Under the pieces are notes generated by a model that saw only the letters and a program-made list of their open reading frames with translations, was not told where the DNA came from and made no database searches. A DNA stretch of 64,000 nt from Protoeuglena noctilucae (lineage: Eukaryota), in contig OY253669.1 of the NCBI GenBank assembly GCA_958009085.1, positions 496,001 through 560,000 of the forward strand, given 5' to 3'. A program made the translations under genes and the position numbers. Shown one piece after another: positions 1 to 64,000 of the stretch; the stretch's first letter is position 1; every line of letters starts with the position of its first letter.

Positions 1-2729
1 GATATCTGAGACACGGACCCCGGTCCGGGGGAGTCGTTGTCATCCGCTGGAGTGGCCTTGAAGGAAGAGGACTTGGTGGGGCGCATGTACCTGGGGGGGG
101 GGGTGAGGGTGAGGGGGGTGCAAGGCATGGCATTACAGCACGGCATTACAGCACGTGCGAGCATGCAAACAGAGGAGTGGGGTGCCAAAGCCAGAGCAGG
201 GCGTGGCGGATTGAGGCATACACCCGCTCGCCCTCTCTCGCAATCAATAACAAGAGCGACAGTCGCAACAATCACCCATCCCCATCCCCTCGTCTCTCAC
301 CCCGGCGTGGGCCCCGAACTGGCCTCCCCCCTCAGGTGCGAGGGGTTGTGCACGCGAGCCTCAGAGATCGCCGTCAGTCCCCCCAGGGTGGGCGCGCTGG
401 GGCCCGCGGCGGATGCGGCGTCGTAGACCCTCTTGGCCCACACGGCGATGCCCGCAGCGGCCAGGGACACCGTGCGCAGGCTCTGGGGGGGGGGGGTTAC
501 GGGGTGTGGAATGCGCTGAGGTGCATGAGAAACCGTACGCAGGCTCTGTGTGTGGGGGGGGGGGGGGGGGGGGAGGAGTTAGAGGGAGGGAGAGGTGGGA
601 TGGTGGGGTGTTGACAGCGCTGAGGTGCATGAGACACCGTGCGCAGGCTCTGAGGTGAGGGGAGAGGGGTTTAAGGGGGGTAGAGATGGGATGGTGGTGC
701 TTTGAAGGTGGTGTTGACTGCGCTGATGCTCACTAGACACCCAAGTCACCCTATACATGCATGGCACTCCCCCCGCATCGCCATCACCCTCATGCACTCC
801 TACATACACTCCAACCACCCCAAACTCTCCCTCCCCCGCCCAAACCACCCACCTCCGGCTCCAGCGCCCCCCTCTCCAGCAGCACCCCCACCCTGTGCAG
901 CGCCTCGGGTGCAATGCTGAGCTTGTCCGCGTCGTTGTGCAGGATACACCGATCGGCCACGTCCTGTAGCCTATTCAAGAACCGATTGACGTCGTGCATC
1001 ATCGATAGAGCCGTCTTCCACCAATCGGGGGCGTGGGTCTTGCCCTTGGGAGTGGCGTTGCGTACGGGAACCATCACGGGGGACTGCCCCAGCAGCAAGC
1101 TCACGGCCTCAAACACCGGGATGACGGCGGGGGAGGGGGTGCGGAGGGCGCGCAGCATGGATATTTCTGGCTTGGAGATGCCCAGCAAGGCGATGTCAAT
1201 CATGCCGGTGTCGTCGGCCTCGGGGGCGGGGGCGGCCGGGGCGGACTCGGCGGCGGGGCGGGCGCGGGCGGGGGTGTCGGAAGCGCGCCTGGGGGGGGAG
1301 GGGGTTGGGGGGTGGATGTGGATGGAGAGGGAGAGGGATGGGGAGGAGGGTGGGGTGGGGTGGGTTTGGAGGGAGGGGGTGTGTGAGTGGATAATAAGGC
1401 GACGGAAGTGGGGGTGTTTGAGGCGCTCCTGGGGGGGGGGGGTTGAGAGGGGTGGGGTGGAGTGGGGGGGTGAGGTGGATGGGTGGCTAACGTGTGGGTC
1501 ACGAGGTGCATGTTGTACAGGGGCAGTTGCGTAGGGATCGACGTCCCGCACCGCACTGCGTTGTGTAAAGGCCGCAGCGAGCACAGGAGGGGTCACCCAA
1601 GCAACCATGCACACGACCACGCCTCGCTCTGTGTATGGCATGCCTAGGCAGGTAGCATGTATGTAGCATGCGTGTCCCTCACTTGAGTTTCTCGATGAGG
1701 GCGGGCTGCGTGGCCTGGTTGAGGCTCCAGATGCCGATGAGGACGGCGTGGAGCTTCTGGATTTCCGGGCCGGCCGTGCGCACCGCTGGAGGGGGGGGGG
1801 GTTGGAGGGCGTATGAGTGAGTGGGCATGTGGTGATGCATACTGCGACAAACGGTGGCTGGCATGACATGGTATAACGTGTGTAATGGAGAAAGACACGA
1901 GAGCCGCAGCGACGGGTGGTGCGGCACCGTTGACGTCGTCACCCCCACGCACGGCTGCACTCCTGCTGCCACCCCACCCCCACCCATACCACCCCCTCAC
2001 CCCCTCCCGACGTGAGCATCTCCTCCTTCATGTGCGTGATGAGCACGCGCAGCTTGGCCGCGCTCAGCGGCGACGTCAGGGCCTCCCCCAGCGCCGCGAC
2101 TAGGCCCGACGCGTCCCTCAGGGCCAGCTTGGTCGCCGTCCACGACACGCCCTTCTCGCCATAGTGGCCTGCAAAGATGGGGATAGATGAAAGAGGATGG
2201 AAGATAAGAAATGTGGAGCATGGGCATGGGGCACAGGAGACGAGGGTACGGGCGATTGCCATGCTCTCCCCGTAGTGGCCTGGGGGGACGGGGATAGGTG
2301 TCATGTGGGTGGATGGGTGGATAAGGAAACTAGAGATGCCGCGTTCTCGCCGCAGCACATCCGCACCTTCACCCGCAGCAGCCGTGCCCATGCACCCTCA
2401 CCCGGCCCCATACGCAATGTTAGCAATACCCACACCCGTAAGCACCCTCACCGCACCCCCACACACTACCATCACCACCCCCACCCCCACTCGCATCACT
2501 CACCCGCGGCCGCCATGACCCCGTCCATCACCATCCGCACCCCCGCGGGCGGCCGGGCCAGCGTCCGCACGCGGTTGAAGTCGTCCCTGGTTAACGACGC
2601 CAGCGCCGCCAGCCCCGCACGCACCCTGCTCTTGGCCCCCGGTGACTCCACGGCGTCCAGCACCGCCTCGTCGAGGGCCTGGCGGGTCAGCGACACCTGG
2701 CGCATCGCGGGGAAGGCGCCGGGGTCGCC
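1..2729 (-). CDS. Partial multi-exon gene encoding a protein with two dynein heavy-chain stalk microtubule-binding-domain (MTBD)-like repeats; 5' end unresolved near gap 1, 3' end beyond the window
   Basis: Exons ~2501-2729 (LAALASLTRDDFNRVRTLARPPAGVRMVMDGV), ~2001-2169 (VSWTATKLALRD), ~1683-1785, ~853-1288 (ISKPEISMLRALRTPSPAVIPVFEAVSLLLG...WWKTALSMM..FLNRL), ~301-483 (SLRTVSLAAAGIAVWAKRVY) and 1-91 (YMRPTKSSSFK). These match the dynein stalk pattern L-x-K-x-D-x-x-E-x-x-x-x-x-x-P-P-x-x-V-x-x-V-x-E-A-V...W...S-x-A-x-x-G-x-x-x-W. Confidence 0.6.
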
Positions 2730-2911
2730 TGGGGGGGTAGGGGGGGGGGTGTGGGTTGCGGTGACGGTCACGGAAGGGGGTGCAGAGATGGTGTGGTAGC
2801 GGGGGAACGCGGGAGTTGTGGAACTATACAAGAATTGGGGGCAAGAGGGGCTCGGGAGGATTGTAGAGGGCCACCGTCATCGCCGTGACCAGGGTCAAAA
2901 GCGCCTGCCTT

Positions 2912-3111
2912 NNNNNNNNNNNNNNNNNNNNNNNNNNNNNNNNNNNNNNNNNNNNNNNNNNNNNNNNNNNNNNNNNNNNNNNNNNNNNNNNNNNNNNNNN
3001 NNNNNNNNNNNNNNNNNNNNNNNNNNNNNNNNNNNNNNNNNNNNNNNNNNNNNNNNNNNNNNNNNNNNNNNNNNNNNNNNNNNNNNNNNNNNNNNNNNNN
3101 NNNNNNNNNNN
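2912..3111. other. Scaffold gap (200 N)
   Basis: Run of N; the round length suggests a placeholder gap. Confidence 0.99.
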
Positions 3112-3385
3112 TGTAGTAGGACAGGCGGAACGACGAGACCTGCAATGGGAGAGGGGTATGTTATTAACTGTCAGCAGTGGTTCATGAGCGTGCAGTAGGA
3201 GAGGCGGAAGGAGGAGACCTGGAGCTAAAGAAGGGTTCTTATTCATTGTCATCAGTGGTTCAGCAGCGTGTAGTAGGACAGGCGGAAGGAGGAGACCTGC
3301 GATGGGTGAGGGGGTGGCGATGTGGGTGTGAGCTGTGGTTAAGGTGTGTGTAGAGTAGTAAGGCTGGCGGAAGGAAGAGACCTGG
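3112..3385 (-). repeat. Four diverged copies (~80 bp spacing) of the MTR4 acceptor plus exon start CAG|GTCTCCTCCTTCCGCCTGTCCTACTAC
   Basis: Copies end at about 3142, 3221, 3299 and 3384. The copy near 3257-3299 reads [14 protein letters not shown] then a stop. Confidence 0.85.
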
Positions 3386-6300
3386 GAGGGAGAGAGAGGT
3401 AAAGGAAGGGAGCATGGCAAGTGATGCTTGTCTTGAGGCATACAGGGTCAGACGGGGTTGGGGTACCCCATCGTCCTCACCAGTGGCGCGGGCGTGCCCG
3501 CGATCATCGCCTTGCAGTCCGCCTTCTCCAAACTGGCATCCACCATCAGAATGACCACGCCACGATCGTCCTGTGATGTTTGACAAGCATGGGCGACAGT
3601 AACAGTCGGGCAGACGTGGGAGGGTATGAAGCATCAGGGCCACACAGATATGACTCTCACCCAGCACTCTCTATTAACGCTCTATGCCACAAATCATTGA
3701 AAGCCACGCTCACACCTCGCACCATTCACCCTGCCCACCCAATCCTCTCCCCGCGACCCCCACTCACCTTCCCACCCTCTCCCTTCAACCCCCCCACCCA
3801 CCCCACCCTCTCCCACCCCCAACGCTCACCTTCCCCCTCCTCCCCGCCCTCCCCGACATCTGGATGCACTCCCCGCTGGTCAAAAACCTGTTCTGCTCTC
3901 CGTCCCATTTCTGCACAGCAGTGAACACCACTGTGCGCGCGGGCATGTTGAGCCCCATGGCGAAGGTCTCGGTGGCAAACAGCACCTTGATGAGCTGCTC
4001 CTGCGGGTTGTGAAGGCGAGAGGTGAATGAGTGAGAGATGTGAAGGTGACTGAGGTGGCAAAGAGCATATTTATGAGCTGTTCCTGGGGAGAGGGATGGA
4101 GAGAAGATGAGTTGATGTAAATGACACTGAGAGGTGTGGAGTGATCGATGATTTTCACAAGAGACAACAGGAGGTCGATGGAACAGGATCGAGGAGACTC
4201 CCATACATGTCGGTACAGTCACTGCTAGCATGTTGATACCATCACTGATATCACATATGCTCACCTGGAACAGGATCTCGATGAGCTCCTTCAATATGGG
4301 CAGCAGCCCCGAGTGGTGGATGCCCACGCCCCGCTTCAGCAGCGGCAGGATGCGATCAATCGCTGGCAAGTTGCGGTCCTCCTCCTTCAGGCACTGCAGC
4401 GCGTTGTCGAAGACCTGCAAGGGGAGAGCGATGAAGAGTTACGATTTGATAAAATCATACATACATGAGAGACTGGGCATGGAGAGCGAAACACCTCCTC
4501 TTCCACCCCACACACACACTCTCTCTCCCCCACCCTCTCACCTCCCCACGGCGTCCAACTCTACACCCGCACCCACACCCTCACCCACACCCACGCCACA
4601 CGCATACACACATACCCCTCACCTCCCCCACCGCCTCCGCCTCCTCATCTATACACACCCTCACATCTATACACACCCACCCCCACCCATACCCCCTCAC
4701 CTCCCCCACCGCCTCAGCTTCTTCGTCGGTGTTGAACGACAGCGCCTGTGCCGCATACGCATACTGCTCGCACTCGTGGCGGGAGAAGCTGAACACGATG
4801 CAGGGATCCAGTGCCTTGTCCTTCACCAATCGAAGCAGCCTGGTCAAGTCCTGCAGGACGTGGACCTTGTTGCGGCGCTTGTCGGTCGTGGGGAGCTTGC
4901 GGCCCTTGCCGTCCTTGTCCTTGTCGGCAGCCTTGCCGCTCTTGTCGGCCTGGGATGGAGAGAGAGGTGGGGGAGTAGTGAGGGTGGGGAATGGGGTAAG
5001 GTGGCAGTGGGGTAGGGGGAGTGTTGAGTGGGGTGGTGAGGTGGCAGTGGTGGGGTTGTGAGGGAGGGAAATGGGGTGAGGCGGCAGTGGGGTAGTGAGG
5101 GTGGGGAGCGGGGTTGGGGGTTGGCAGCGATCCATTGAGGGTGTGAGCAGTCCCAACCACCCACCCATCCAACCATCCATCTTTACCCCCCCATCCCTTT
5201 CATTTCCACTACACTCTTCTGCAACCAACCACCCCCACAAGTCACAAGCCATCACCCCACTCGCCTTGCCCCCCCGCCCCCGCCCCTCCTCCCCCTCCCC
5301 CTCCACCCCCTCCCCCTCCTTCCCCACCCCAAACGAGTCCCGCAGCTCCTCGAAGTTTCTGTCCTTGAAATTCCCGAACTCGTCTTTCACCAGGAATAGT
5401 CCCTTGCCGCCCTCTGGGAACGCGTAGTGCTGCAGGGGGGTGGGGCGGTACTCTGCGGGTGGATGTGGAGAGATAGGGGAGTGGGTCAGGGTGGGTGGTG
5501 GAGAGTAATTGAGGGGGCCACTCCGCATGGGTTGAGAGGGTGACCAAAACACAACCGTACATCCGCAACACAACGACAGCAGCCCCCTTGCCATTATCTG
5601 TATCAAGCAGCATGGTCACCCTTCTGTCCTATGAACGACCAACCCCCTCCACATGTCTGCCACCCCCCCACCCCACCCCCCCCCACTCACCCGTGTACAC
5701 GACATGCGTGGGCTGCTTGCGCAGGTGGCACACCCACTCGGCAAACTCTCGGCTGTTGCTAAGCGTGGCGGACAGGAACACCATCTTGACCGTATCTGGC
5801 AGGAAGATAATCGTCTCTTCCCACACCACGCCCCTGTCCTTGTCCTGCATGTAGTGCACCTCGTCAAACACCACCCAGGCGACCTCCTTCAACACCTCGC
5901 TGCCGCGGTAGAGCATGCTGCGGAGGATCTGGGGGCAATAAGGGGGGGAGTGGGGTGGCGTGAGGGGGCGACAGGGGTGGTGGGGTGAGGGCAGGGCAGT
6001 TATCGCGGCATGCGACGTGCGATACGCCATGAGATGCCGACTGCGGTGGTCATGACAATGCAGATCAACTGTCATCGATCACAACCCCACCTCATCTCCC
6101 CACCCCCTCACCTCCGTGGTCATGACGATGCACGTCGAGTGGGGGTTGAGCGTCACGTCCCCCGTCATCAAACCCACGTCCTGGAACTCCTCCTGCAGCT
6201 CCCGGTACTTCTGGTTGCTCAACGCCTTGAGCGGGGACGTGTAGATCACCCGCTGGTTGTCCCTGCGAGGGGCAGGGGAGAGGGACGGTGAGGGCGGCAT

Positions 6301-7148
6301 GCCCACCCAAAGACAGTTGGTCGTGCGAGCAGCAGGGCAGAGCAATATGAATGGGCTCTGTTGCGCCGATATCGATGCCGTCATGTCATGCTTGTGATGC
6401 AGTTCGTAACTGCCCGTAACATGGTGTATATCGATATACATCGCAACTACTCGGCACGCACCGGAAGGCCATGGCCACCGCGTACTCTGCCACCACCGTC
6501 TTGCCCGCCGAAGTGTGCGCGGCGACCATGACGGACTCGCGACGCTCCAGGCACGCGATCGACGTCTCCTGGAAAGGGTCTAGCGTGAACGGATACGTCT
6601 TGGCGGGGGTGCCGGCGTAATTGGGAGCGTCCACCGTCCCGTGCATGGCCGGATCGAGGTCCGAGTCCCTCCAGTCCTGCGCGATGGACGCGAGCGAAGA
6701 TAAATTATTGGAGAAGCGCGGGCCGGGTCGGCGGGGACGGCCGCGCGCCGGTGGCTGCGGCCAGCACGTCTGCACGGCCCTCGCGCCACGCCGCGGCACA
6801 GACCTTTGGCAAAGCGACGTCATGAGTGCACGTCTTCGATGCGTCCGCTCCCGTAATCACGCGTGGCTTCTTCACTAATCCATCCGCCGCCTGGTGGTTG
6901 TCCCCGGACGCTTTGATGACGTCCCTGCAACCGCAGCGGAATTAGCCTATTCGAAAGCGCATATCCACGATCCCACCCCTGCGGAACATCGTACACGAAA
7001 CGTGCGAGCGAGCGGAAGCCCCCGCAATACGGCCAGGACGATGCAAAGAGCAGCCGCGACGCCGGCGACCCTTTCAGCCTCGCCTCTTCCGCTTGACGGT
7101 CTCCCTCGTGGTCGCCGCGATGGCGAGCCCCTCTGCCGTGCCCTCCAT
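3112..7148 (-). CDS. MTR4: MTR4/SKIV2L2 DExH RNA helicase, N-terminal half (RecA1 and RecA2), running into gap 1
   Basis: Exons encode [25 protein letters not shown] (Walker A), [93 protein letters not shown] and VSSFRLSYY. Probable ATG at 7148 (MEG...KRKR). Confidence 0.95.
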
Positions 7149-7584
7149 GGCACCGAGGGGCTTAGGACAGCGCTCGCTTCCAGACCCAGCGCTCCCAGCC
7201 CACTCCTGACGCACGAAAGCCGACGTGCTACTTTTCGGCGCCCCACTCGCCAGTCAGGCATGGCCGCGATGAACACGCGTAGCGCTCTCAAGAACAGCCC
7301 GTCCTCCCCTCGGTTCGCAGCGAACACAGCGCGCAGCTGGCGAGGTTGTCTGGCAGCGCAGCGCCTGTTTCCCGCGCCCACTCGACGCACCGCGCGCGCC
7401 AAGGTGTCTCCTGTGCATCTCCTGAATGAGATAGTTGGCATGTGATCGAATCTGTTCTGCCTGGCGCGCGGTCGACGCCCCCGATGCAGCACGTACGAGT
7501 TGTTTTGACTGCGTGAGCGATGCATGACGATCGCGGCGGGCTGCACAAAGCGCGCTCCCTGTTGATTGTCCTCGGGGCCCCGCC

Positions 7585-10500
7585 ATGACGGACGAGCCCG
7601 ACGAGCAAGGTGCGGAAGGGTTACATCCGTCCTGTTCCCTCGCTCCAGCGTCGCTGCGCGGCACGCCTCGCATCTGCCGCTTCGCAGGCACCGTGTCCTT
7701 CAATCTGGCGCCGCCGGAACGGAGTGCGCGCTTCGATTCGTTGGAGGATGTCTTTCCCTCCGGCGATGGCGCCGGGCCCGGGGATGAAGCTGCTGCGGAC
7801 CTGCCCACCTTCACCACGCTCGACGACGTGGTTCACTGGTGAGCATGTTACCCCACGCGGCTGCCACCTGCATGCTGAGCTCTTTCTTCCGAGGGTTTTG
7901 AGTTTTGCAACGACCCGCTGCTCAGCATCCTCGGCGACGCAGGGCGAATCAAGCCATTCAGCGCGCGAACGACGCAGCGCGACAGGCGGTGATCGCCGAG
8001 CGACTGAGAGTCGATGCGATACTGAAGCGAGAGGGGGAGCGGGAGCGGGAGCGGGAATGTGAGCGATGTGCTGCTGCCTCGCCGAGCTCGCCTCCGTCTG
8101 CGGATGCGGTTCTTCTGCAAGATTTGGCTGCGGCGCTGGGGGAGGCAGAGGACTTGCGCGCGGAGGTGGAGCGGCTCCAACAGGCGCTGGCCCAGGCGCC
8201 CGCCTCGCAAGGGTCGGGGGAGGCCCAAGCAACCGCGAGGGAGCTGGAGCGATTGCATAGGGAGATGACGGCGTTGGCGGTGCTGCGCGAGGCTGCGGAT
8301 GAGCGCGCGGCGGGGACGCAGGCGGAGCTGGAGGCCACCCGCACCACGCTGCGGACCCAGCAGCAGAACAACGCCCGCGCGGCCGCGGAGATCAAGAAAA
8401 CCCGCAGCCGGGTCAAGGAACTCGAGGAGAAGGTTGAGGAGCTGACTACCGCGAAGGTGGGGCTGCAGAGGGCGGGCCAGCGGGCGACGAGTCCAGGACA
8501 TGGCTCGGGACACGAGCGTTCGACACCTGTGTTCATGCGTGTGTCGGCCGTCCTGAGCGCTTGTTAACTGCGTTCACGCAGGACGAGCTGCAGAAGGAGT
8601 TGCGCGGGGCGAGGAAGCAGCTGAAGGACCTCAATGAAGCAAAGGCGGACCTGGAGCAGCGCTGCGAGGCTGTAGTGCTCGAAAAGCGGGACGCAGAGCG
8701 ACAGGCGAGCGATGAGCAGCGCCGATGCGATAGTGTGCAGGTTTTCAACGCTCACCACCGGCTGATGTGCGGGTCTCTCCGCCCTGCTTGCCCTTGACTG
8801 CCCACTGCGCTGTGCGTGCAGCGGGAGCGGATGCTGGCAGCCGAGCAGACGCTGCGGCAGGAGAACCTGACCATGCGGAAGGAGCTGGAGCATTTGCGCG
8901 GCGACGTCAGGACCCAGGCGGAGGTGAGCTGCGGCTTGGCGGGAGGGTCGTACCTTTGTTGCGGACAAAAGTGTGGCAGCCGCGGACCTCTGTCCGTCTC
9001 TCCAGTAATGTGGGAAAGTGGTTTCGCCATACAACACGTCTGAGTCGCTTGTATATGTAAAATGACTCGCCAAGCTTGCCTCTCAAGCCACACAGCATTG
9101 TTACCGTACTTCCCCCGCAGCGCCTCTCTTCCCTGGAGTCCCTGCTCCACCGCGCCACGACCATGTCCCAGGCGCGCGCCATCTACGATTCCGCGCGCGC
9201 CAGGGCACCGCAGCAGCCGCATCAGCCATCCCAGGCCAGCGACTCCTTGCATTTGTCACCAACTGCGAGCGCGGCACCTGCTGCATCCGCTGCGCCCGTT
9301 AATGCGACCGGGGGCGACTCCGCGGCGCCCAAGGCCTCGCGAGGGACGTCGGCGGGGAGCGGCAACCGCGCGCCGTCGGACGCGCCCACCGTGGATGTGG
9401 CGGGGGCGAATGCGGAGGGCGGGGATGGGGACGCGGAGGCGGACCGGGGGTCGGGTTGGTGAGTTATGAGTGCATGCTTGGAAATGAATGACGAGAATGA
9501 TCCATGACAATTACTATTGTTGTTTCGCGATGATGACGGATCCAACTGCGGTGCACCTCTCGACACTCCCATGTGCTTTCTCTGACACAGTCCCCTGCCT
9601 GTCCTTTGTCCCAGGCCCTCGGACCCACTGACCCTGGACCGCCCCGCACCCTCGGTGTCTCCCTCGGCCCCTCGCCCCTCAGGCGCATCCCCACCCATCA
9701 TCCTCGACGCCGTCACCCTCACCACATCGGCACCCAAGGTGACACACATGCACGCTGCTGCTACCCACGTATGCGACAGACGCATCGTTTGATCACGAGA
9801 CCCTGTTCACATGCAGTCAAGTTGCACTTGCAGTGAACCCCCACTCCCACCGCCACCCCTCTGCCCCATCGCGACCTCTCACTCTCTTCCTGTCCTCAGA
9901 GCACCTTCTTGCGCCGGTCCAAGACGGGCGGCCCACGCAAGGACCGTGGGGCGGCGGAGGTCGCGCGTGATAAGGCGGACGATGACGCGTTGTCATTGGT
10001 GAAGCGATCCGGGCCCATGCGGCGCGTGGGGAAGCTGCAGGAGATGCTCAGGCGGTCGGAGGCGGCGAGGATGGAGCTGGAGCGGGACATCATGCAGGGG
10101 GAGGTGAGACTGCAGTGCTGGTGCGAGGGTGCAGTGGTTGGTATGACATGCAGGGGGAGGTGAGTGGAAGTGTGTGGGGCTGCACTGGTTGAATGTCGTG
10201 ATGCCGGGCGAGGGAAGACAGGAGACTCGGCTCACCAAGACAGTCTCTTCCCTGACACTTACAGTCTCTCTCACGTCCCCTGCAGGACGAGCTCTCAGCT
10301 CTCCTGGCGTCCCCCACCCTCGTCTCGCGCTTCACGGGGGTCACCGCGCTCCCCACTCCCTCCCCCAGCGCGTCTGCGCTCTCTCCGTCCCAGCGCACCG
10401 ATCGCGCCGACTCACTGCTGGAGCCAACGCCCAGTTATTCCCCGGGCAAGAGCAGCGTGGGGCAGGCGGGGGTTACAAGTGCAGGGCCTGGGCCGCTGTC

Positions 10501-23638: not shown

Positions 23639-24713
23639 TCAGACCCACGGGACGAGTCCAATCAACAGGTGCACGAACCTCGTCTTCCGCTCCCGCAGCC
23701 CCCGCACCTCCTTCGCCACCCCCATCGTCGTGCCCTTTCCGGTCAGCAGGAACTCCCTGCACTCCTCCCCATCCAGCTCCAGCAGCGAACACCCCTGCCT
23801 CTCCAGCGGCGCCGTGAGCGCGGTGTAGCGGTCGCCGATCCCCGTCGGGCCCTGCCCCTGCACGTACGCCTTCGCCACCTCGGGCACGCGCTCAACCAGG
23901 TCGTGCGGCACCTCGAGTGCGCGGGGGGTGCGCGCCGTGATGAGGGCCTCCGTCTGGTGCGGGAGGCCCGTCGGGGTCACGAAACACCGCGGGTCCGCGT
24001 CGAAGGCCACAATGCAGTCCCTGAGTTGTTTCCTCATGCCCGCGGCCCATGCTCCGGCACCGCGCACGTACCTCCCCCCCGCCTCGTCAATGAGAGCCGG
24101 CGGCACGTCGGGCCGTTCCCTCTTGAGCTTCTGCACGCGGGCCAGGCGCGCCTTGAATCCCTTGGGCCATTTCTAGTCCCTTGGCCGCAGGAAGGGCGAC
24201 GCCCCGTGCTTGAGCAGCGCCATGTCCTGGACGATTTGCCAGGGTAGAACGTCATGTCGGAATAGACTCCCGGCGAGAACATGGTGTTAGGAACGCGGAT
24301 GGACAGGCGCTCGCGCGCCGAGAGGCCGTAGTCGCGCTTGGCGGACGTCTGCGACACCCACCCGTCCCATGTGCCGAGACTCGACGTGTCCAGTGGGTCG
24401 TCCACCTACCGCTTGACCAGCGCGCCACATTTGTAGTCTGCGGACCGCCTCTCCAGCTCCTCCACAGAGACCTGCCGCACCCACTTTGACACGCCGGCCA
24501 GGGCCAGCAGCGATCGGGGCGACGCGTACGGGACGACCAGCGTCAGGACGTGCTCCATCTGCTGGGGCGACTGCACGAGCGGAGCGGGCGTGGGGCGAGG
24601 CGGCGTACCTTGGGCAGCAGCACCCTGTCTATCCGGGCGCCTCGCGAGCCTCGTCGCGGCCTCACCAGCCCCTCCGCCTCTCCAGACCGCTTCTTGGGTT
24701 TGCGGGGAGCCAT
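23639..24713 (-). pseudogene. Probable pseudogene: F-box-like N-terminus plus XPA C-terminal-like domain
   Basis: MAPRK..VLLPK|MEHVLTLVVPYASPRSLLALAGVSK (F-box-like), then VSQTSAKRDYGLS...SDMTFYP/WQIVQDMALLKHG (resembles XPA ITKTEAKQEYLL...DMKLYLKLQIVKRSLEVWG). In-frame TAG at 24406-24408 and 24173-24175, and a 1-nt frameshift near 24241. Confidence 0.5.
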
Positions 24714-25440
24714 CTCGGCCGCGGGGGCGCTGGAGGCAGGGTGTCTGTTGCAAGCCCGGTCGGCGCGCAGGGTGGCTCCGATAACCACATGGGGGGCGCG
24801 ATGCGTTGATAAGGACTAGCTATAGCAAGGCGCACAGACTCACCTCGGCCGCGGCGCGGCTTGGTCAGCAGCTCCTCGGGACCCGCAACGCCCAGCGACG
24901 AGTCAAGTGGTGAATTGAAGACCCCAAATCCAGTGATGCCAATTTTCTGGTCATTGGCGGGCGTTAAGGCTCATCGTGAGAATGCCAAAAGAGCAAGGCG
25001 CCTCTTCTGACGGAAGCGTCGCACTGGGGATGACCTGGTCGGTCCGGGCGAGCTGTCCCGAACTGCCTGGCTCCGCGCACGCAATAACGGCATGCTTATC
25101 TGTTCGTCGCGGCGAAGCAACCCCGCACTCTCTCGCGTACTCTCCCCGGCACCCCCACCCCGTTTTGCGCCTTGTGTCCCCAAACCCTGCCCCTGCCGCG
25201 AGCCGCAACTCGGTTTCGACGATCAGGATCCATCGCCGGACCCGCAGCGCAGGGAGACGCGCCTGCCGGGACGACCCGCGTCTAGATACGCTGGGACGGG
25301 CGCCTCGGGTCGGCTGTTCTGGGGCGGTGTGGCGCCTGGATTGCCGTCCCACAGCCGCCATTGCCTCTCGTTTGAGCGCAATTATCTGATCTGACGGCCA
25401 TGGCGCCCGCGGGGTCGCTGAGTCGTCTGGGCGCACTGCC

Positions 25441-25640
25441 NNNNNNNNNNNNNNNNNNNNNNNNNNNNNNNNNNNNNNNNNNNNNNNNNNNNNNNNNNNN
25501 NNNNNNNNNNNNNNNNNNNNNNNNNNNNNNNNNNNNNNNNNNNNNNNNNNNNNNNNNNNNNNNNNNNNNNNNNNNNNNNNNNNNNNNNNNNNNNNNNNNN
25601 NNNNNNNNNNNNNNNNNNNNNNNNNNNNNNNNNNNNNNNN
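25441..25640. other. Scaffold gap (200 N)
   Basis: Run of N. Confidence 0.99.
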
Positions 25641-44342: not shown

Positions 44343-47300
44343 ATGCCGCTTTTGGACGGGCGTCCGTTCGCCCTGCCGACCCCGGCGGTTCCCGAGGAGG
44401 CAAAGACCGACGACATGGTGGGTTGCTAAATTGCAGCGCGCACTGGACGCCGTCGATTGCCAGCGCAATTGGATTGGTCATGCGGATGCCTGGGCGGTAC
44501 CTGGGCGAACGACGTGCCCGTAGCGGGCGCGGGAGGCGACGCGCAGCAGCCCCAGCGTGCTCGCCCCTGTCGGCGAGCCCCTGAACCCCGATCCCGTGCC
44601 TGCCGCAGGTCTACCTCCTCCGATTGACGGGAGAGACGTTTCTGGATTACGAGGCAAGCGAAGCACGGCCCCTGTCGGCGACAACCCGGTCTTGGGCACC
44701 CCACCCGCACCCCCGGCGCGCGCCGCGCTTGCCGATGCGCCCTCCCCCACGCACTGCCCGCAGGATTTCCTCGCGCAACAGCGCATGTACACGAGTAGAC
44801 GATGGTCCTGCTCCGTGACGGGCAAGGCGGGCCTGACGCTGCAGGAGGCCCTGATGGCCGAGAGCGGGGCGGGGGACAAGCAAGGTGACGCGAGAGCCGC
44901 TTTCTCGTATAAGTGGGTCCGTAACCTGCCTCATTGCACCGACGGAGCCCGCGATCGATGCATTCTCGCGCGCCCGTGCGACCCGACACCGTGCCCTTTG
45001 TGTTCCCCGCCACAGCCGTGGACTTCCTGGCGCGCGCCCGCCAGATCGCCGCCAATGCCGATGCTGACGCGAACCCGCGCGCCGATGCCCCCTCGGCGCC
45101 CCGCGTCACGCCCTGGTCGCGCGCCCGGGGGGACGCGCGCGGGGCTGGCTCCGGCTCTGCCTCAGCCCTGGCGGACTATGTCGACGAGGACCTCCCCGAT
45201 TACACGGAGACGTTTGAGGAGGCCACGCGGCGCCTGTGCGCGCGGCAGGGGTCGTCCAAGCACGCCCTGTTCGAGGTGCTGAGGGACGCGGGGCCCAAGG
45301 TGAGGGGCGCGGTGGGATGATACGCATGTGTGGGGTCGATAAGCATGGCGAGAGAGGCAGGCAAGAGGGTATGTTAAGCATGTATGTTGTTGGTGGTTGC
45401 TTTGGTGCGCTTCGACAGCAGATGGTGGAGTGGCATGGATGGATGGATGGTCCGTTCCATGGTTGGTCGCATCTCCCGCCTCAGGGTCTCCCCATGAAGA
45501 ACATCATCGCCGCTGTCAGCCAGAAAGGCCTCAAGGACCTCAGCAAGACCAAGAACGCCAACCACCTCCTCACCACAGTCCTGAGCAGGCGAGAAGCTGG
45601 GGAGGCAAGGGTGCTGCCTCTTGGCACTGGCAAGCAAGACGTGGCAGGGCAGAGTGGCTTAGTATCAGCCCTTCACTGCTAGCTCGCTGCCACCGGCAAT
45701 GTACTTCCGCATTACTCTATGTAACACGCATCCGCACCCTCGCAGCCCCGCGCACCCACCCACACTTACGCTATCCATCATCCCGCGTCTCTCGCAGGGA
45801 GCCCGCCTTCTGCCGCGTGGGGCGCGGCGTGTGGTCCATCCGGTCGATGCCCGGGGTGCGGGCGGTGAAGCCACCGTCGGGGTCGCCCGGCAGTGGCAAA
45901 GTGAAGACGGGGGGGTCAGGGGCAGCGTCAGGCGGGGTGGTGAAGGGGTCGAGCGTCAAGCTGACCATCAAGCTGCCGGGTCTGACGTCGGAAGAGTTAA
46001 AGACCAAGATGGAGGTGAGGGTTGGTGGGAGAAAGCGACGTGGCGCCTGAGAATGCTGCCGTGACTGGTCAAGCGCCCCAAGCTCACTGGCTCTTTTTTT
46101 ACCAACTCCGTGCCCCTTTCACACCCTCTGTAGGAGGCCAGGGCCCGCATCCAGGCGGACAGGGAGCGCGCTATGGCAGAAAAAGAGGCCAAGAAGGCGG
46201 CGGAGAGGGAACGGAAGAGGCAGGAGGCCCAAAACCTGAAGAGGTGAGGGATGCGAATGACAACGTGCCAGTTTAAATGCCATTCTTTAAGCATCGCCAG
46301 CACCACCCGCTCATCAGGCGCATCTGCACCCCTTTCACGCTCCCCTCGTCCACTCCTTGGCTCTCCCACTGCTCACCTCCCACACAGCACTTTACTCACA
46401 GATACCCCATCGATGACTTGGCTCTCCTGGACGAACTCCGTGCCAAACACGCCTCTGGGGACCTGCCCCAGCCACCCGCCCACGACGTGCCCCTCCCGCC
46501 CCTCGCGGACTCCCCCGCGCTGTCGCCGGCCCTGGCCATGGTGGCAGAGTTCACCGCCCACTGGCGCGCCGACCTGAGCCCGCGCGCGCCGTACCTGTGG
46601 CGCGATCTGGCGCGGCTGGTGGGGCTGCCGGACGCCGCGGGTGTGGGAGCAGAGGGCGGCGCCAAGCCCCTGAGCCTCGGGGCGCTGTACCGGGCGCTGC
46701 TGCGTGCGGTGCTGGAGGGGCCGCTGGGGGACGGCAGCGCGACGCGGGCGCAGCGGCGGTGGCGGGCGGTGCTGGAGACGGAGGGCAGCTGGCCGGAGGT
46801 GGCGCGGCGGTGCGTGCGTTTGGACTGCTGGGGGGACGCGCGGGAGGGGGCGGCGGGGATGGAGGGGGCGGCGGGGGCGGCGGCGGAGCGGCTGGGGAGG
46901 GAAGCGGTGGAGTGCCTGGGCCCCTGGGATCACGTGGCGGTGCTGGAGCGCCTGTGCGAGGATGTGATTGAGACGGGGGCGGTGCGGGGGGCGGTGGAGC
47001 GGCGGTGGGAGGGGCGGGAGGCGCTGGACAAGGAGAGGAGGGAAAAGCAGAGGTGAGGGAGTGGGTGGAAGTGCGCTTGATGCACCCCAGGGTAGCCAAC
47101 ACTTGGCATGGGTTGCACCCGTCACGTTCCACTCCCGCACCGATTATTGCCACCATGCAACGAAGTCGGACTTTCCATTGTCTGTCTCCCACCCCAGGAA
47201 GCTCCGCCAGGAGCAGCGCGAGTTGGAGGATGCGTTGAAGGAGATGAGGCGGAAGCAGCGGGAGGCGAAGAAGACGGAGCTGCTGGCCAAGGCGGGGAAG

Positions 47301-49414
47301 GGGGCGCAGGGGCAGGGGCAGAAGCAGAAGCAGGGGGCGGGGGAGGGGCAGGGTGACGAGAAGGATGGGGAGGGGGAGGGTGACGCAAAGCAGGGTGATG
47401 AGAAGCAGGAGGAGGATGGGGAGGTGGAGGACCCCGTGGCGGAGGAGAAGCGAAAGGAGGCGCGGGTGAGGGTCGAACGCGCGTCGCTGTGCGGATGACG
47501 GGGGCCGACGGCGCGAGCCCCTGTCTCGCATTGTTGTTTTCCAACAATCGACAAGGTGCTTCCTCACGCATCTCACTCCATCGCAGGTCCGTGAGATCCA
47601 GAGGGCCCTGGAGGCGGTGCAGGACAAGTATGCGGCGGAGCTGCCGGGGGTGGCGATGCGGGCCGAGCCGCTGGGGTACGACCGTCACTACCGGCGGTAC
47701 TGGTGGGGGCTGGCGGGGAGGAGGGACGTGGTGATGGTGGAGGAGGGGAGCAGCGATGGCACCGGCGAGGGTGCCGGGAGCGTGTTGCGAGAGGGGCAGA
47801 GCCGGTGGAGGGAGGTGAGACGCTTTGACGCTTTCATTCAACCGTTGCTGCCCTCGCTATTACCCCACCCTTTGCTAGCATGCCATTCCTCTCATGCCCT
47901 CTCTCTCAGATCGCCACCGTGGAGGACCTGGAGGCCCTACTTGGCGCCCTGGACCCCCGGGGCGTGAGGGAGAAGGAGCTGAGGGAAAACATCGAGCGGA
48001 GCATGGGTGCGATCCGGAAGGGAATGGCGAGGGCGGCAAGGGAGCGGGGGAGCGGGCGCGAGGGTGAGGAGGGGGAGGGGGAGGGGAGCCAGGCGGAGGG
48101 GGCGCGGGAGGGAGGCAGTCAGATGGAGGGGGGGCGGCAGGGCGGCAGTCAAGCAGAGGGGGGCCGTGAGGGTGGCAGCCAGATGGAAGGGGAGGGCCCG
48201 GCGGAGCGGCGGTCGGGTCGCGTGCGCGCGGAGGTCGATTACAATGAGACAAGGATGGCGGGGGGCGTGACGAGGAAGAGGCGGGACGAGGAGAGGGTGG
48301 CGAGGGCCCAGAGGGCGCGGGCGGTGGGGGCGGCGGTGGGGGCGGCGCGGGGGTCGGGGACGGAGGGGGAGGCGGCGGCGGGGGCGCTGGGGGCGCTGGG
48401 AGACGTGACAGCGTGGGCCAAGGTGAGGGTGCATGGTGGTATGGGCTGAGAGGCACAGGAGGGGTGGCGGCCATCCCCAAATGCCTGCTCCTGCTGTGCG
48501 GCATTGTTCGTTATCACTCGCTCGCGACGCACCTCTGCCATTGCAGGATGCCGCGCGGCAGCACAGTCCCCCCGGGGGCTGGCGCGCGTTGGAGGAGCGG
48601 GTGGCTGCGCTGGGGAAGGAGGCCGAGTCAGTGACGGACGCGGCGGGGGCGGCGGCGGTGATGCGGGGGGCGTCCGAACTGCTCATGGAGGTGGAGGAGC
48701 GGCTGGTGGTGAGGGACACATGACACGCAGCTGGTGGTCGCCAGCCCCCTTGCAACGCATCGCATGCGTGTGACGAGAGAGCTCCTCCCCTCCCGCAGCT
48801 GGCGTCCAAGAATGTCAAGCGTGTCCTCAAGACGGCACCCTCCAAGGAAGCGGTGCTGGGGAGTGCCGAGGGCGGGCAGGCGGAGGCGGGCGATGCGAAT
48901 GGCGAGGGGGAGGGAGAGGGTGACATGGATGTGGACCATGACAAGGGTGGAAATGGAAGCCCTGGGGCCAACGCGGACCCCGAGGAGAAGGGTGCGGGGG
49001 CCCACTTGCGGGGAGGGCACTTGGAGGGCCTGTTTGAGTTTGTGGAGGGGTACGAGGAGGCGGCGCGGACGGTGCAGCCGTCGCTGTGGGTGTCGGGCCG
49101 CGAGCGGGAGGCGTGGCTGCAGGACCTGGCGACGGCTCAGGTGAGGGGCAGTGGGGGACCAGTTGGGGACGAATTTGGGGCCAGTTGCGGAGCAGTCTTG
49201 GGATGCGACCTCAACTCACGCCCCCGACCTTCCTCCGCTGCAGACGTTCGCGAGAGTGGCGTACTGCGCAGCGTGCCTGGCGTTCGCTGCTGAGAAGATG
49301 CACGGGGGCCGTGCCCCTCCCCCTGAGAGCCTGGAATCGGGCGAGGATGACGAGGACGAGGACGAGGACGAGGACGAGAGCGAGGGGCGAGCCGGCAAGC
49401 GTAGGCGCAAGTGA
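44343..49414 (+). CDS. ISWI-associated ACF1/Itc1-like chromatin protein: WAC - HARE-HTH - DDT - WHIM1 - WSD
   Basis: WAC: MPLLDGRPF..VYLLRLTGETFLDYE..WSCSVTGKAGLTLQEAL. HARE-HTH: GSSKHALFEVL..GLPMKNII..KGLKDLS..VLSREPAFCRVGRGVWSIR. Also RYPIDDL; WHIM1 VAVLERLCEDVIET; WSD RAEPLGYDRHYRRYWW and LLGALDPRGVREKEL. Confidence 0.82.
48080..48195 (+). repeat. Coding 30-bp tandem repeat x ~4 (GGSQ[A/M]EG[GA]R[EQ])
   Basis: Translation EGSQAEGAREGGSQMEGGRQGGSQAEGGREGGSQMEG. Confidence 0.75.
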
Positions 49415-49920: not shown

Positions 49921-52900
49921 ATGTCGACCGCCTCCGACTCGGCGCTGCGCGCGAGCGCGAAGGAGGTGGAGCTTCTCGTAAAGGGTGCCGAGGCGATCGA
50001 GAGCGAGAAGTCCCTGGGGGTGATCGGGCGCGCCTGACCTGCTCCGCAGCGTGGGGCCACCCTGCGGCGCCACTGGCAGGTCGCGGGGCGCAGCGGATCG
50101 CCGGGGACGCAGCGGGGCTCTCACGGCGCTCCTTTCACGTGACCGCAGCTCAAGCTGATGGAGATGATTACGTCGAAGATGCCGTCGATCGGGGGCGCCA
50201 TTGACGTCATGGTCGTGCGCCAGCCGGACGGGTCCTTCAAGTCCTCCCCCTTCCACGTCCGCTTCCCCGCCTGGCTCTTCCGCCCGCGGCACCGCGAGGT
50301 CTTCGTCGAGGTCAACGGCGTGCAGACGCCCGTGGTGATGGCCCTGGGCCACACGGGCAACGCGTACTTTGTGGAGGAGGCGTCCAGCGTGGAAGTGCGG
50401 GAGAACATGGCCCTGGAGGACGACGCCGCGTCACTCACGGGCGAGCCGCCCGCGACGGGCACCGCCGGGACCAGAGCTGGAGATGCCACCGTGCTCCACG
50501 CTGCGTCACGCCTGCCCATCCCTGCCCACCCCTGCTCCCAGGCATGATGTCCCCGCGGATGATGGCGGGCATGGAGGGGTACGACTCGGGCGACGAGGCC
50601 TCGCCTCGCCTCATGCCCAAGGAGTTCGCTGCGGCCGTGACACACGCGGCCATGGATGTCCAAGAGGCAGCGGCCAAGGGGGACGGCAAGGGGGAGTCGC
50701 AGAGGGGAGAGGCGGGGGCGTGGGTCATGCATCCATTCGGGGGGTCGCCGCCGACCGGGTTCACCCCGCCCTCCGGGTACACCCTGGTGAGTGGTGCAAC
50801 TGGCCTTGGTGTGTGCATGCGGGTGCTGTTGAGCCAACGAGTGCACAAGTAGGCACGGCAAGCACTCCTTCGTCTCTCGGTTCCCACCCGCAGCCCTTAG
50901 GCAACCGGTACACGGGGACGGCGAGCCCCTTAGGCCCTGGCACGCCCCGCAACGCCGCGCCCCGGCCCCCGCTCCCGACACCCCTGGCCATTCCCCGGCA
51001 GATGTCCCCGTCGAAGGGCCAGGGACAGGGGCAGGGCCAGGGGCACTCGCAGGGGGCCGCGGCCTCCTCGCTGAGCCCGAGGCTGATGGTGGAGCCGCTC
51101 ACCTACGACGCCGTGCTCAAGGGCGGTGAGCGTGGGGGGAGTAAGCATGTCGGCATGCGGCGATTGTCAGGCTCGCATATGCTGAAATTCGTTCCATTGA
51201 TCCGTCGCCACCCCTGCCCCGCCCCTTGCCGCCGCAGCACGCCTGCCGCTCCCGGGCACGTCGCCCACGGCTGCCGGCCGCCATGAGCCGCCCTTCCCCG
51301 CCGGCAGCTCTGCGGGCGACGTGAGCGAGCCCCCGGCGTCGGTGGCGTCGTCGCTGCCGGCCTTAGCGCCGCCCCTGGCCCAGATGCCCCGCTGCGCATT
51401 GGAGGACATGACCCGGTCGACGCTCGAGTGCACGGCTGAGGTGCTGCGGTTCGACCTGGAGCACGAGCGCCTGCTGCGGGGCATGCAGGGGGGAGCCGCG
51501 CCGAGCGTGCCCCCCGGGGGTGGCTTCGTGTGGGAGGCGGGTCCCTTAGAGGCCGAGCGGCTGCGGTTCCTGGAGGCGCAGAGGGAGAGCGACGGGGCTA
51601 ACGTGGACCTCGCGGCGCTGGCGAGGCCGCTGGGGGGCCCGGAGGCGGAGGGGGCGGAGGGGGACGGGCGCAACGGGGGCGCTGGGACGGTCGCGACCGT
51701 GGGGCCCTCCTCGTCCCGCATGGTCACTCTGACGCCCCGCGCGTCGATGGGCGACGGGGGCCTCGGCCGGCGCACTCCAGGTGCGGGGGAGGCGTCGTTC
51801 CGGGACCTGTCCTTCGCGGGGGGGTCCCCCGGGGAACGCGACCCCCGCGCCAGCTCCGAGGGCAGCATGGTGTCTGCGAACGATCACCTGGATGACGGGG
51901 CGCCGAGCACGGGGGCGCACCGGCGGGTGCGATCGAAGGGGGAGGACGGGGGCATCGACATCCAAGTGGAGCTGGACGTGGGTGATGGGGGACCGGGGGG
52001 TGGTTCTCGGATGCGCGAGGCGGCGTGGAGCTTTTGGCCCTTCGCGTCGGGGGCGGGGGGAGCCGGGGCGGGGCTTGGGGCGAGTTCGCAGGCGGGCGCG
52101 GGCGCGGGTGCGGGGCAGGCGCGGTCGGAAGGCGGGGGCTCCCGGGCGGGGGCGGGGTCTTCGGGGGAGGGGTCGCGGGCGGGCCTCCGTTACGTGAAGA
52201 CGATGACGCCGACGAGCCGGGACCTCGCGGCGATGGGCCTGCGCCCCGGTCAGAACGAGGTGGTGTTCCGTTGCCAGGGCGGCGCGATGAAGGCGTACAT
52301 GTATGTCTACGAGTGGGACGCGCGCCTGGTGGTGAGCGACATCGACGGCACCATCACTCGCTCGGACGTGATGGGCCACGTAATGACGGCCGTGGGCCGG
52401 GACTGGACGCACCGCGGCATCGCGGAGCTGTTCCGGTGCATCAAGCGCAACGGCTACGAGGTAATGTACCTGTCGTCGCGGTCCATCTCCCAGGCGGCGA
52501 GCACGCGGGACTTCCTGCACAATCTGCGCCAGCCGGGGAGCGCCGAGGACCACTCCATGCCCCTGGGACCCGTCATCCTCTCCCCGGACGGCCTGTTCCG
52601 CTCCGTGACGCGCGAGGTCATCCTGCGCCGGCCCCACGAGTTCAAGATCGCCGCCCTCACCAACATCCGCCGCCTCTTCCCGCTCCACTGGTCCCCCTTC
52701 TACGCCGGCTTCGGCAACCGCGTTACCGACGAGGTGTCGTACATCCACGTGGGGGTGCCGCGACCACGCGTCTTCACCATCAACCCCAAGGGCGAGATCT
52801 CCCAGGTCACCAGTGCCGCGCGCGTCCACGCCGTCTCGAGCCTCCGCGCCATCCGGGACAACGTGGACGCCATCTTCCCCGCCTACCGCCAGGCGTCGGC

Positions 52901-53272
52901 GGCGGAGGGGCCGGGGGAGGAGGGGGGCGACGAGAGGGGTAGTCCTCCCAAGGACACCATGGCGGCGCAGGAGGAGTTCAGGTGACGGCATTGGGGGGAA
53001 CGAGTGGGCACTGACGCCGGGGCATCGGATAGGAGCCTTAGTCAACACGTGCCAGCGGCTTTGATCATCGCTCTGACCCGTGCACTGGCGCCTCCCGCAG
53101 TGATCTGCTGTATTGGAAGAAGGAGACGTCGCTGGCGTCCCTGGCGATGGTCCTGGAGGTCGTCCCTCCGGACGCGGCACCCGCCAAGCCACGCCTGCCG
53201 GTCGTGCCCAAGGCCGAGCTGCCCGCCTCCGCGACCGTGTCGCCCCGCAAAGGCGCCTTGCTCCCCAGGTGA
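49921..53272 (+). CDS. PAH1: Lipin / phosphatidate phosphatase (PAH1-type)
   Basis: N-LIP: GGAIDVMVVRQPDGSFKSSPFHVRF. C-LIP/HAD: VVSDIDGTITRSD, DWTHRG, YLSSRS, HEFKIAAL, FYAGFGNRVTD, FTINPKG; C-terminal EEFSDLLYWK. Confidence 0.93.
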
Positions 53273-57800: not shown

Positions 57801-58364
57801 TTGGGGGCCCGCATCGCCATCATGGCGCGCGGGGCCCTGCGCTGCGTGGGGTCGTCGATCCGCCTCAAGTCGCGGTTCGGCGCCGGGTACCAGATCGCCA
57901 TGGCGGTGGGCCACTCGAACAAGTCCTCGCCCAACCTGGCCCAGCTCGAGTCCCGGCGCGAGAACCTCAAGAACATCTTTCGCAACCGCCTGGGCGTCGC
58001 GCCCTTCGACGACACGGGCAGCTACGTGACGTTCGTGGTCCCGCGCGACCGCCACCGCGACGCCGTGAGCGTCCTCGAGCACCTGGAGCGTAACCGGTCG
58101 GCCCTGGGCATCACCGACATCCAGCTGTCGATGGCCTCGCTGGAGGAGGTGTTCCTGGCCATCGCCAAGGCCGCCGAGGTCGAGGAGGCCGCCAAGCAGG
58201 GCAGCGCCATGTGCCCCTACGCCCTCAGCGACGGCACCACCCTCATGATCCCCATGGGGGCCGACGAGTTCATCGACGCCCAGGGAACGCGCTTCAAGGT
58301 CGTCTGGGCCCAGGGGGAGGATGGGACCCTGCAGATCATGGACCTGCGCGCCCAGGCCGCGTAG
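54891..58364 (+). CDS. ABC transporter subfamily A, half-size (ATH/ABCA2-like)
   Basis: QFTALMRKNLLL..RNW, EIVTEKE.LLRQSMRTMG, transmembrane helices, Walker A GPNGAGKTT, signature YSGGMKRRL, Walker B VYLDEPTTGMDP, LTTHSMEEAD, SLEEVFL. Confidence 0.93.

Positions 58365-59888: not shown

Positions 59889-64000
<4,112 letters not shown>

Follow-up and report, generated by a model that had tools for sequence, protein, structure and literature searches.

Can the microtubule-binding domain (MTBD) of dynein work in a protein that is not a motor? To our knowledge, this domain is generally treated as found only in dynein heavy chains, where its grip is set by the motor via the stalk. The question is raised by a stretch of 64,000 nucleotides from Protoeuglena noctilucae (contig OY253669.1, positions 496,001 to 560,000), referred to below as the window, whose first 2729 positions encode two units similar to this domain on the minus strand. 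The original prediction, made from the sequence alone, described an apparently motor-less protein with two tandem dynein MTBDs and a short motif reminiscent of plant proteins. Our analysis indicates that the locus is probably the middle part (units 4 and 5 and a first basic motif) of a transcribed and spliced gene for a non-motor protein composed of repeated dynein MTBDs.

The minus strand of positions 1-2729 contains six exons with consistent phases, all of them bordered by GT..AG; the window as a whole is GC-rich (about 56-75% GC). Spliced by coordinates, exons A to F give 400 residues with no stop codon. The exons and their predicted content, with H1 to H6 denoting the helices of the MTBD, and CC1 and CC2 those of the stalk, are as follows.

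2728-2504, minus strand: exon A, internal; end of a low-complexity linker, a short helix and H1-H2 of copy 1 (LAALASLTRDDFNRVRTLARPPAGVRMVMDGV)
2168-2001, minus strand: exon B; middle of copy 1, equivalent to H3-H4 (VSWTATKLALRDASGLVAALGEALTSPLSAAKLRVL), without the flap insertion
1785-1683, minus strand: exon C; end of copy 1, equivalent to H6 (PEIQKLHAVLIGIWSLNQATQ), and a short CC2-like helix
1288-853, minus strand: exon D; Pro/Ala linker, then H1-H4 of copy 2 including the beta-hairpin flap between H2 and H3
1288-1210, minus strand: the Pro/Ala linker with which exon D begins (29% Ala, 14% Pro)
482-301, minus strand: exon E; H5-H6 of copy 2 (SLRTVSLAAAGIAVWAKRVYDAA), then low-complexity sequence ending in ...SSGPTPG
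90-1, minus strand: exon F; carries the first of the basic [YF][ML]xxTx[SN] motifs, in YMRPTKSSSFKATPADDNDSPGPGSVSQI; the reading leaves the window at its first base

The two dynein stalk-tip-like copies and the Pro/Ala linker noticed originally thus reappear in the gene model, copy 1 (1683-2729) as exons A to C and copy 2 (420-1210) as the later part of exon D with the start of exon E. The same holds for the low-complexity stretch followed by TPGYMRPTKSSSFK across a splice near 301 and 91, since TPGYMRPTKSSSFK straddles the E/F joint at 301/90 (exon F starts at 90). The short helix of exon A is the likely counterpart of the last turns of the stalk helix CC1. Exon B aligns to residues 683-728 of P0016, one of two full-length relatives introduced below, and to a profile of the MTBD unit. 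Exon C, whose phases fit exons B and D, aligns to residues 740-762 of P0016 and 986-1046 of the other relative, P0002. Exon E is matched by the hidden Markov model (HMM) of the MTBD unit at HMM positions 108-144 with E 2.8e-8.

RNA contigs show the gene to be transcribed and spliced. Part of the stretch is present in four marine metatranscriptome runs from a single study and all of it in four runs of one organism; contigs of runs X1, X2, X4 and X5 were compared with positions 1-8000. Joint D/E is crossed by a 756-nt RNA contig (run X2, record 9) that follows 1256-853 and then 482-299 with 0 differences, and joint A/B by a second one (run X4, record 14, also 0 differences) that follows 2654-2503 and then 2167-2020. 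Among the matches listed, two of the five splice joints are directly visible in RNA in this way; reconstruction of the spliced protein from RNA, proposed originally as a check, is therefore achieved for A/B and D/E, and the remaining joints come from coordinates and phases. A further contig (run X2, record 10) covers 2729-2503 and continues 197 nt further 5' with sequence not present in 1-8000, hence exon A is internal. The first 30 nt of this overhang had 0 matches in the window. The 30 transcript bases directly 5' of exon A, when read in frame, are Pro/Ser-rich codons.

Both units are supported as dynein MTBD homologues by sequence comparison and by predicted fold. A phmmer search of the copy 2 exon against PDB returned 18 sequences at E<=10, 14 of which, including the top 11, are dynein heavy chains (best E 8.8e-5), all aligned at the MTBD; the other four, all at E 0.45 or above, are unrelated enzymes. 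For the first exon of copy 1, dynein chains make up 20 of the 23 matches, the best being the MTBD of DNAH1 (E 4e-4). Spliced copy 2 aligns with residues 8-139 of a true dynein fragment, P0005, at 34.2 bits, and the H1-H6 pattern is common to both. By language-model features, 28 of the 30 ESM Atlas clusters nearest to exon D carry PF12777, the Pfam 'MT' family, whose central part is the MTBD of dynein heavy chains. The window units are basic, with isoelectric points (pI) of 10.6 and 8.9, and structural alignments put the units at 18-24% identity to solved MTBDs.

An AlphaFold model of exon D (119 residues, H1-H4 only, from a five-row alignment) has a predicted local distance difference test score (pLDDT) of 80.8 and a predicted template modelling score of 0.72, and it contains a beta-hairpin at residues 45-62 (strands 45-48 and 59-62). 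With Foldseek, ranks 1 to 13 are all dynein MTBDs, headed by human DNAH1 8i3j (E 7.3e-4, template modelling score (TM) 0.67), the one match of 280 at E<=0.001. In a second structural comparison (VIA), seven of 259 chains reached a Z of at least 2, and all seven are dynein MTBDs; 8i3j scored Z 10.8, with a root-mean-square deviation of 2.7 over 105 aligned residues. The structural comparison with dynein MTBDs proposed originally as a check thus agrees with the prediction for exon D.

Both unit types were seen together in a model of units 4 and 5 of P0016 (345 residues, from an eight-row alignment including five window exons, P0002 and P0004). Its pLDDT is 84.8, and it comprises two folded domains separated by residues 162-196, which are almost helix-free, with pLDDT below 50 at 176-193. 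Eleven of 936 chains matched this model at a Z of at least 5, all of them dynein MTBD or stalk entries, and the next match had Z 4.0. Six of the eleven fall on unit 5 (8i3j, Z 15.6; DNAH7 6rza, 13.6) and five on unit 4 (mouse cytoplasmic dynein 3err, Z 12.2; 3wuq, 11.2; 6kio, 11.1). Since all these matches are dynein, both types of unit are predicted to have the MTBD fold. Unit 4 is bordered only by short helices (residues 14-29 and 143-161); because nothing longer than such helices flanks either globule, the model has no stalk. The two types differ in the flap: copy 2 has a predicted beta-hairpin between H2 and H3 (exon D model) and its best matches are the flap-bearing structures 8i3j, 6rza and 2rr7, whereas the copy 1 type is flap-less, and the equivalent unit 4 of P0016 best matches cytoplasmic dynein 3err. 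Finally, the ESM Atlas model of the last unit of P0003, a fragment from the cluster of P0016, matches dynein stalk clusters with TM 0.70-0.72.

Does the protein continue beyond two units, and does it anywhere acquire a motor? Copy 2 was searched exhaustively against 1.84 billion cluster representatives, which gave five proteins at E<=0.001. Word-indexed protein searches returned only P0001 for the window query and only P0002 itself for the P0002 query. The main proteins considered here are as follows.

P0001, 283 aa: the window's own unspliced open reading frame (ORF)
P0002, 1805 aa: full-length relative matched over four stretches (E 6e-31)
P0003, 570 aa: fragment, sharing a cluster with P0016
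P0004, 407 aa: an MTBD-like unit and a TLC membrane domain
P0005, 224 aa: true dynein fragment
P0016, 1427 aa: full-length member of the P0003 cluster and the closest full-length relative

The spliced window protein is colinear with residues 605-1017 of P0016 (35.5% identity, E 5e-67) and with residues 863-1298 of P0002 (32.4% identity, E 1e-52). The MTBD-unit HMM finds six units in each of these two proteins, strong and weak ones alternating, at the following residues.

P0016: 131-238, 296-329, 485-599, 644-674, 817-962, 1186-1329
P0002: 92-163, 328-360, 685-796, 878-999, 1090-1245, 1562-1705

By this alignment, copies 1 and 2 of the window correspond to units 4 and 5 of the relatives. The idea that two tandem domains are the whole architecture needs amending, as the full-length relatives have six units. 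Tandem MT domains without AAA domains, which it had been proposed to seek in algal proteomes, do exist elsewhere, namely in P0016 and P0002. Pfam detected PF12777 alone, and neither AAA nor any other dynein family, in P0016, P0003, P0009, P0007 and P0002, and it gave no match in P0013 (the scan of P0016, P0009, P0007 and P0013 covered three full-length proteins and one variant of 1472 aa). The ORF of P0016 lies on a metagenome contig of 6824 nt and is closed on both sides, by an in-frame stop 72 codons ahead of the start and by a stop at its end, and none of the 19 flank ORFs of that contig contains a dynein domain. The window itself holds a fragment and the relatives have six units, thus for the window's own gene we infer the absence of a motor from the relatives; what its own sequence shows are MTBD-type units with no stalk between them. 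Of the motor-less protein predicted originally, one part stands, as no dynein motor domain was found in the 150 longest ORFs of the window or in the relatives scanned by Pfam; the other does not, since the window carries a piece and not the whole protein. A candidate N-terminal lipidation signal in P0002 was rejected: its residues do not fit the usual consensus, and P0007, which begins 14 residues earlier, leaves the start codon in doubt.

MTBD-like units were also observed in other surroundings. P0004 and P0017-P0021, from several metagenome sources, combine a unit 38% identical to copy 2 with a TLC (TRAM/LAG1/CLN8) domain (Pfam E 2e-43); the N-terminus of P0004 is uncertain, as the reading starts with V. 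From its domain content, P0004 could be a membrane-to-microtubule tether. An ESM Atlas search with residues 325-480 of P0003 retrieved a cluster of oomycete proteins with an Impact N-terminal domain (398 aa, TM 0.63), 14% of whose members carry PF12777, and judging by the models this may be another non-motor use of the domain. The use of the MTBD outside motors may thus be wider than the family described here.

The second element of the predicted protein is a short basic motif. The window part has one instance of the pattern [YF][ML]xxTx[SN], P0016 has four and P0002 has two, compared with 0.007-0.054 occurrences expected from shuffles. In P0016 and P0002 the copies fall in the region that separates unit 5 from unit 6, which is basic (pI 10.8 in P0016) and rich in Ser. 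We take these YMxxTxS motifs to resemble a microtubule-binding motif of plant IQD proteins. According to a study of AtIQD16 (PMC8246641), a conserved segment of 15 residues in the DUF4005 region, P344-R358, is needed for microtubule binding and resembles the tail of Kif18A. The spacing of nine residues from Pro to Ser in our motif agrees with P344-S352 of AtIQD16, the letters of the plant motif being given only in a figure of that study (PMC8246641). Pfam gave no DUF4005 or IQ match for exon F (E<=10), P0003 (E<=1) or P0016 (E<=0.1), in searches where the HMMER filters drop most weak matches and a faint likeness is possible. Of the DUF4005 connection proposed originally, the short-motif resemblance is retained and a match to the Pfam DUF4005 model is not, so that the likeness to DUF4005 and IQD proteins is a lead and not a membership.

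The part of the gene that can be seen is bounded by an assembly gap and by the edge of the window, which contains two runs of N.

2912-3111, no strand: assembly gap of 200 N, directly 5' of the gene
25441-25640, no strand: second run of 200 N

A DNA contig (run X5, record 20) covers 1-2911, ends 42 nt into the first gap and extends about 30 kb beyond the window's first base. Neither further MTBD units nor the N-terminal region of the relatives turned up outside 300-2876 at E<1 when the 64 kb were searched by tblastn (queries P0002, P0003 and P0016) and with the HMM in six frames. The missing upstream exons, with units 1-3, are expected in the gap region. On the other side of the gap, from 3112 to about 8000 on the minus strand, lies a gene for an RNA helicase of the MTR4/Dob1 type, which the gap interrupts at about mid-protein. 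All 15 PDB matches of one 41-residue helicase exon are MTR4, FRH or Dob1, at weak E of 0.04-0.12; in these chains of 734-1108 residues the aligned part lies at about 460-610. Transcripts of this gene extend into bases that the window lacks, with loose ends at 3257. As the helicase gene is cut and its transcripts run on, either much DNA (half a gene or more) is hidden in the gap or the scaffold was joined wrongly. An inversion of the central contig, which had been considered originally with an upstream flank at about 24800-25440, is neither needed nor supported; the only match there, 24409-24819, is at chance level (E 1.2).

Several minus-strand introns, both of the MTBD gene and of the helicase gene, have at their ends extra, degenerate tandem copies of the acceptor together with the first 15-30 bases of the next exon. 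For instance, four copies of about 79-85 nt with '...VSSFRLSYY' were found at 3112-3398 in the helicase gene, and three copies of AGCCTGCGCACGGTGTC precede exon E (485-669). Single extra copies were found of the start of exon B (at about 2281) and of exon D (at about 1440). This looks like a genome-wide habit of duplicating intron ends, or of a mobile intron element. In addition, the summed contig depth in run X1 rises to about 11,000 at 4540-4806, where an intron has low-complexity sequence rich in C and A, most likely from simple repeats common to other organisms in the sample.

Other genes lie elsewhere in the window. No dynein domain was found at E<=1e-5 in the 150 longest of its 339 ORFs of at least 110 aa. 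The Pfam families identified on the long ORFs also include inositol monophosphatase, amine oxidase and GNAT acetyltransferase; none of the families is dynein. Four of the gene regions are listed here.

60600-64000, plus strand: tubulin-folding cofactor D
51201-52982, plus strand: lipin (LNS2)
56144-58361, plus strand: ABCA-type transporter
44524-48446, plus strand: WAC/WSD chromatin-remodelling factor

Could the locus be a piece of an ordinary dynein heavy-chain gene, with the motor exons hidden in the gap or to the left of the window? The 5' side of the gene does adjoin 200 N, the transcript does continue upstream, and the best PDB matches are axonemal heavy chains. However, a heavy chain has one MTBD between two coiled-coil helices of about 100 residues each, whereas here two MTBDs lie on either side of a Pro/Ala linker of 35 residues, copy 2 continues into low-complexity sequence and not into CC2, the transcript bases 5' of exon A are Pro/Ser-rich codons, and the whole region is colinear with relatives that are motor-less. 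We regard this origin as barely credible. Nor is it at all probable that what is seen here is a relic in decay, whether a pseudogene or debris left by exon shuffling of a dynein gene. The degenerate duplicates of exon starts in the introns and the broken assembly around the locus would suit such a relic, but six exons are open over 400 codons in consistent phases, the gene is transcribed and spliced, and two other lineages have the units in the same order, with 33-36% identity. A third possibility accepts the units as real and the protein as motor-less, with MTBD-like domains that no longer bind microtubules and serve instead as a scaffold or a tether to another filament or a membrane partner. 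This seems to us unlikely, yet less so than the two preceding explanations. It draws on the divergence of the units (the 18-24% identity to solved MTBDs), on the copy 1 type being barely recognizable by sequence, and on P0004, whose joining of an MTBD-like unit to a membrane TLC domain means that the module is used in varied contexts. On the other hand, the whole MTBD pattern is kept, the flap included, both window units are basic, and repeated basic motifs, which we take to resemble a microtubule-binding motif of IQD proteins, accompany the units.

Several observations weigh against the reading that we prefer, a gene for a non-motor protein of repeated MTBDs. The window gene lacks its 5' part here and continues beyond the window at its 3' end, and thus the full architecture is unseen. 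Copy 1 is far more divergent than copy 2: the MTBD-unit HMM picks up only its H1-H2 (7.2 bits), a profile comparison (hhalign) with the MTBD-unit profile covers H1-H3 only, with E 1.3e-4 and a probability of 54%, and its fold was modelled only via the relative P0016 (35% identical), from the shallow eight-row alignment. When the window exons were run singly against Pfam, exon D scored 11.9 bits (E 0.11) with PF12777, for which the cutoff is 24 bits, and none of the other window exons scored; the exon D match falls at the right positions of the profile. The PF12777 search suggested originally thus stays below the cutoff on single window exons and exceeds it in two relatives, P0016 (37.2 bits) and P0003 (27.5 bits), P0002 being just below it with 23.5 bits, as are P0009 and P0007 with the same score. 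Conservation is thinly sampled, with only three relative clusters among the 1.84 billion representatives. Finally, run X1 also has unspliced contigs (records 1 and 3), and DNA or pre-mRNA may account for some of the 'RNA' signal; X1 was for this reason left out as evidence of splicing. Bins lacking RNA cover were given no weight either.

Accepting the repeated-MTBD reading, we suggest that the missing ends of the window gene resemble those of the relatives, and that the product is most likely a non-motor, multivalent, putative microtubule binder. Each unit would be a six-helix MTBD globule with a few turns of the stalk helices, and the units would be strung on disordered linkers rich in Pro, Ala and Ser. 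The full-length relatives are predicted to have six such units, flap-bearing ones (similar to axonemal inner-arm dyneins) alternating with flap-less ones (similar to cytoplasmic dynein), and, ahead of the last unit, a basic stretch in which YMxxTxS motifs occur two to four times. In a heavy chain, the affinity of the MTBD is switched by sliding of the stalk helices, which is driven by the AAA ring. In a preprint (bioRxiv 10.1101/590786), movement of H1 is described as the affinity switch of the MTBD, and the flap of DNAH7 as touching the neighbouring protofilament. In the protein considered here, each unit would bind the tubulin site used by a dynein foot and, with no ring and no stalk, should stay in one state; with no AAA ring and no long stalk for a shift of helix registry, the binding would be static and not cycled by ATP. 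The array and the basic motifs, on flexible linkers, would bind a microtubule at several sites at once, and could stabilize, bundle or tether microtubules or compete with dyneins for their site.

Taken in full, this would amount to a new class of microtubule-associated protein (MAP), with six dynein-derived feet and IQD/Kif18A-like motifs, static multisite binding at the dynein site, and possible roles in bundling or tethering (of flagellar doublets, microtubular roots or cortical arrays) and in competing with or braking dyneins, the MTBD being a mobile domain taken from the motor more than once. We put this complete picture forward tentatively, as a possibility somewhat short of an even chance. 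Its interest is that a transcribed multi-MTBD protein with neither stalk nor motor would show the domain to be usable as a stand-alone module, and would offer a natural experiment on the affinity state of an MTBD without helix-registry control. The gene also provides a candidate for a structural MAP in marine algae of a little-studied group, and if the dynein site is occupied, the protein could regulate the access of motors to microtubules.

Full-text literature searches found no description of motor-less MTBD proteins, and the six-unit array with its basic motifs suggests a distinct architecture and an undescribed kind of MAP. With the DUF4005 region (PF13178) of IQD proteins and the Kif18A tail it may have in common a short basic motif that starts with Pro and has Ser nine residues on; it differs in the unmatched Pfam DUF4005 model and in having no IQ67 domain. 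With the dynein heavy-chain MTBD (the central part of PF12777 'MT') it shares the helical fold and the sequence pattern, the closest solved structures being human DNAH1 8i3j, DNAH7 6rza, Chlamydomonas dynein-c 2rr7 and mouse cytoplasmic dynein 3err, and copy 2 shares with the axonemal inner-arm dyneins the predicted beta-hairpin flap between H2 and H3. Unlike a heavy chain, judging by the relatives, it has no AAA+ ring, and in place of a long CC1/CC2 stalk it has only short helical stubs; a heavy chain carries one MTBD, whereas here several occur in one chain. Multivalent structural MAPs are represented by the repeats of tau, MAP2 and MAP4, the tandem domains of doublecortin and the TOG arrays. 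Like them, the predicted protein would have a flexible chain along which several modules bind microtubules or tubulin, which is its probable mode of working, but the modules themselves are unrelated, and here the module derives from the foot of a motor.

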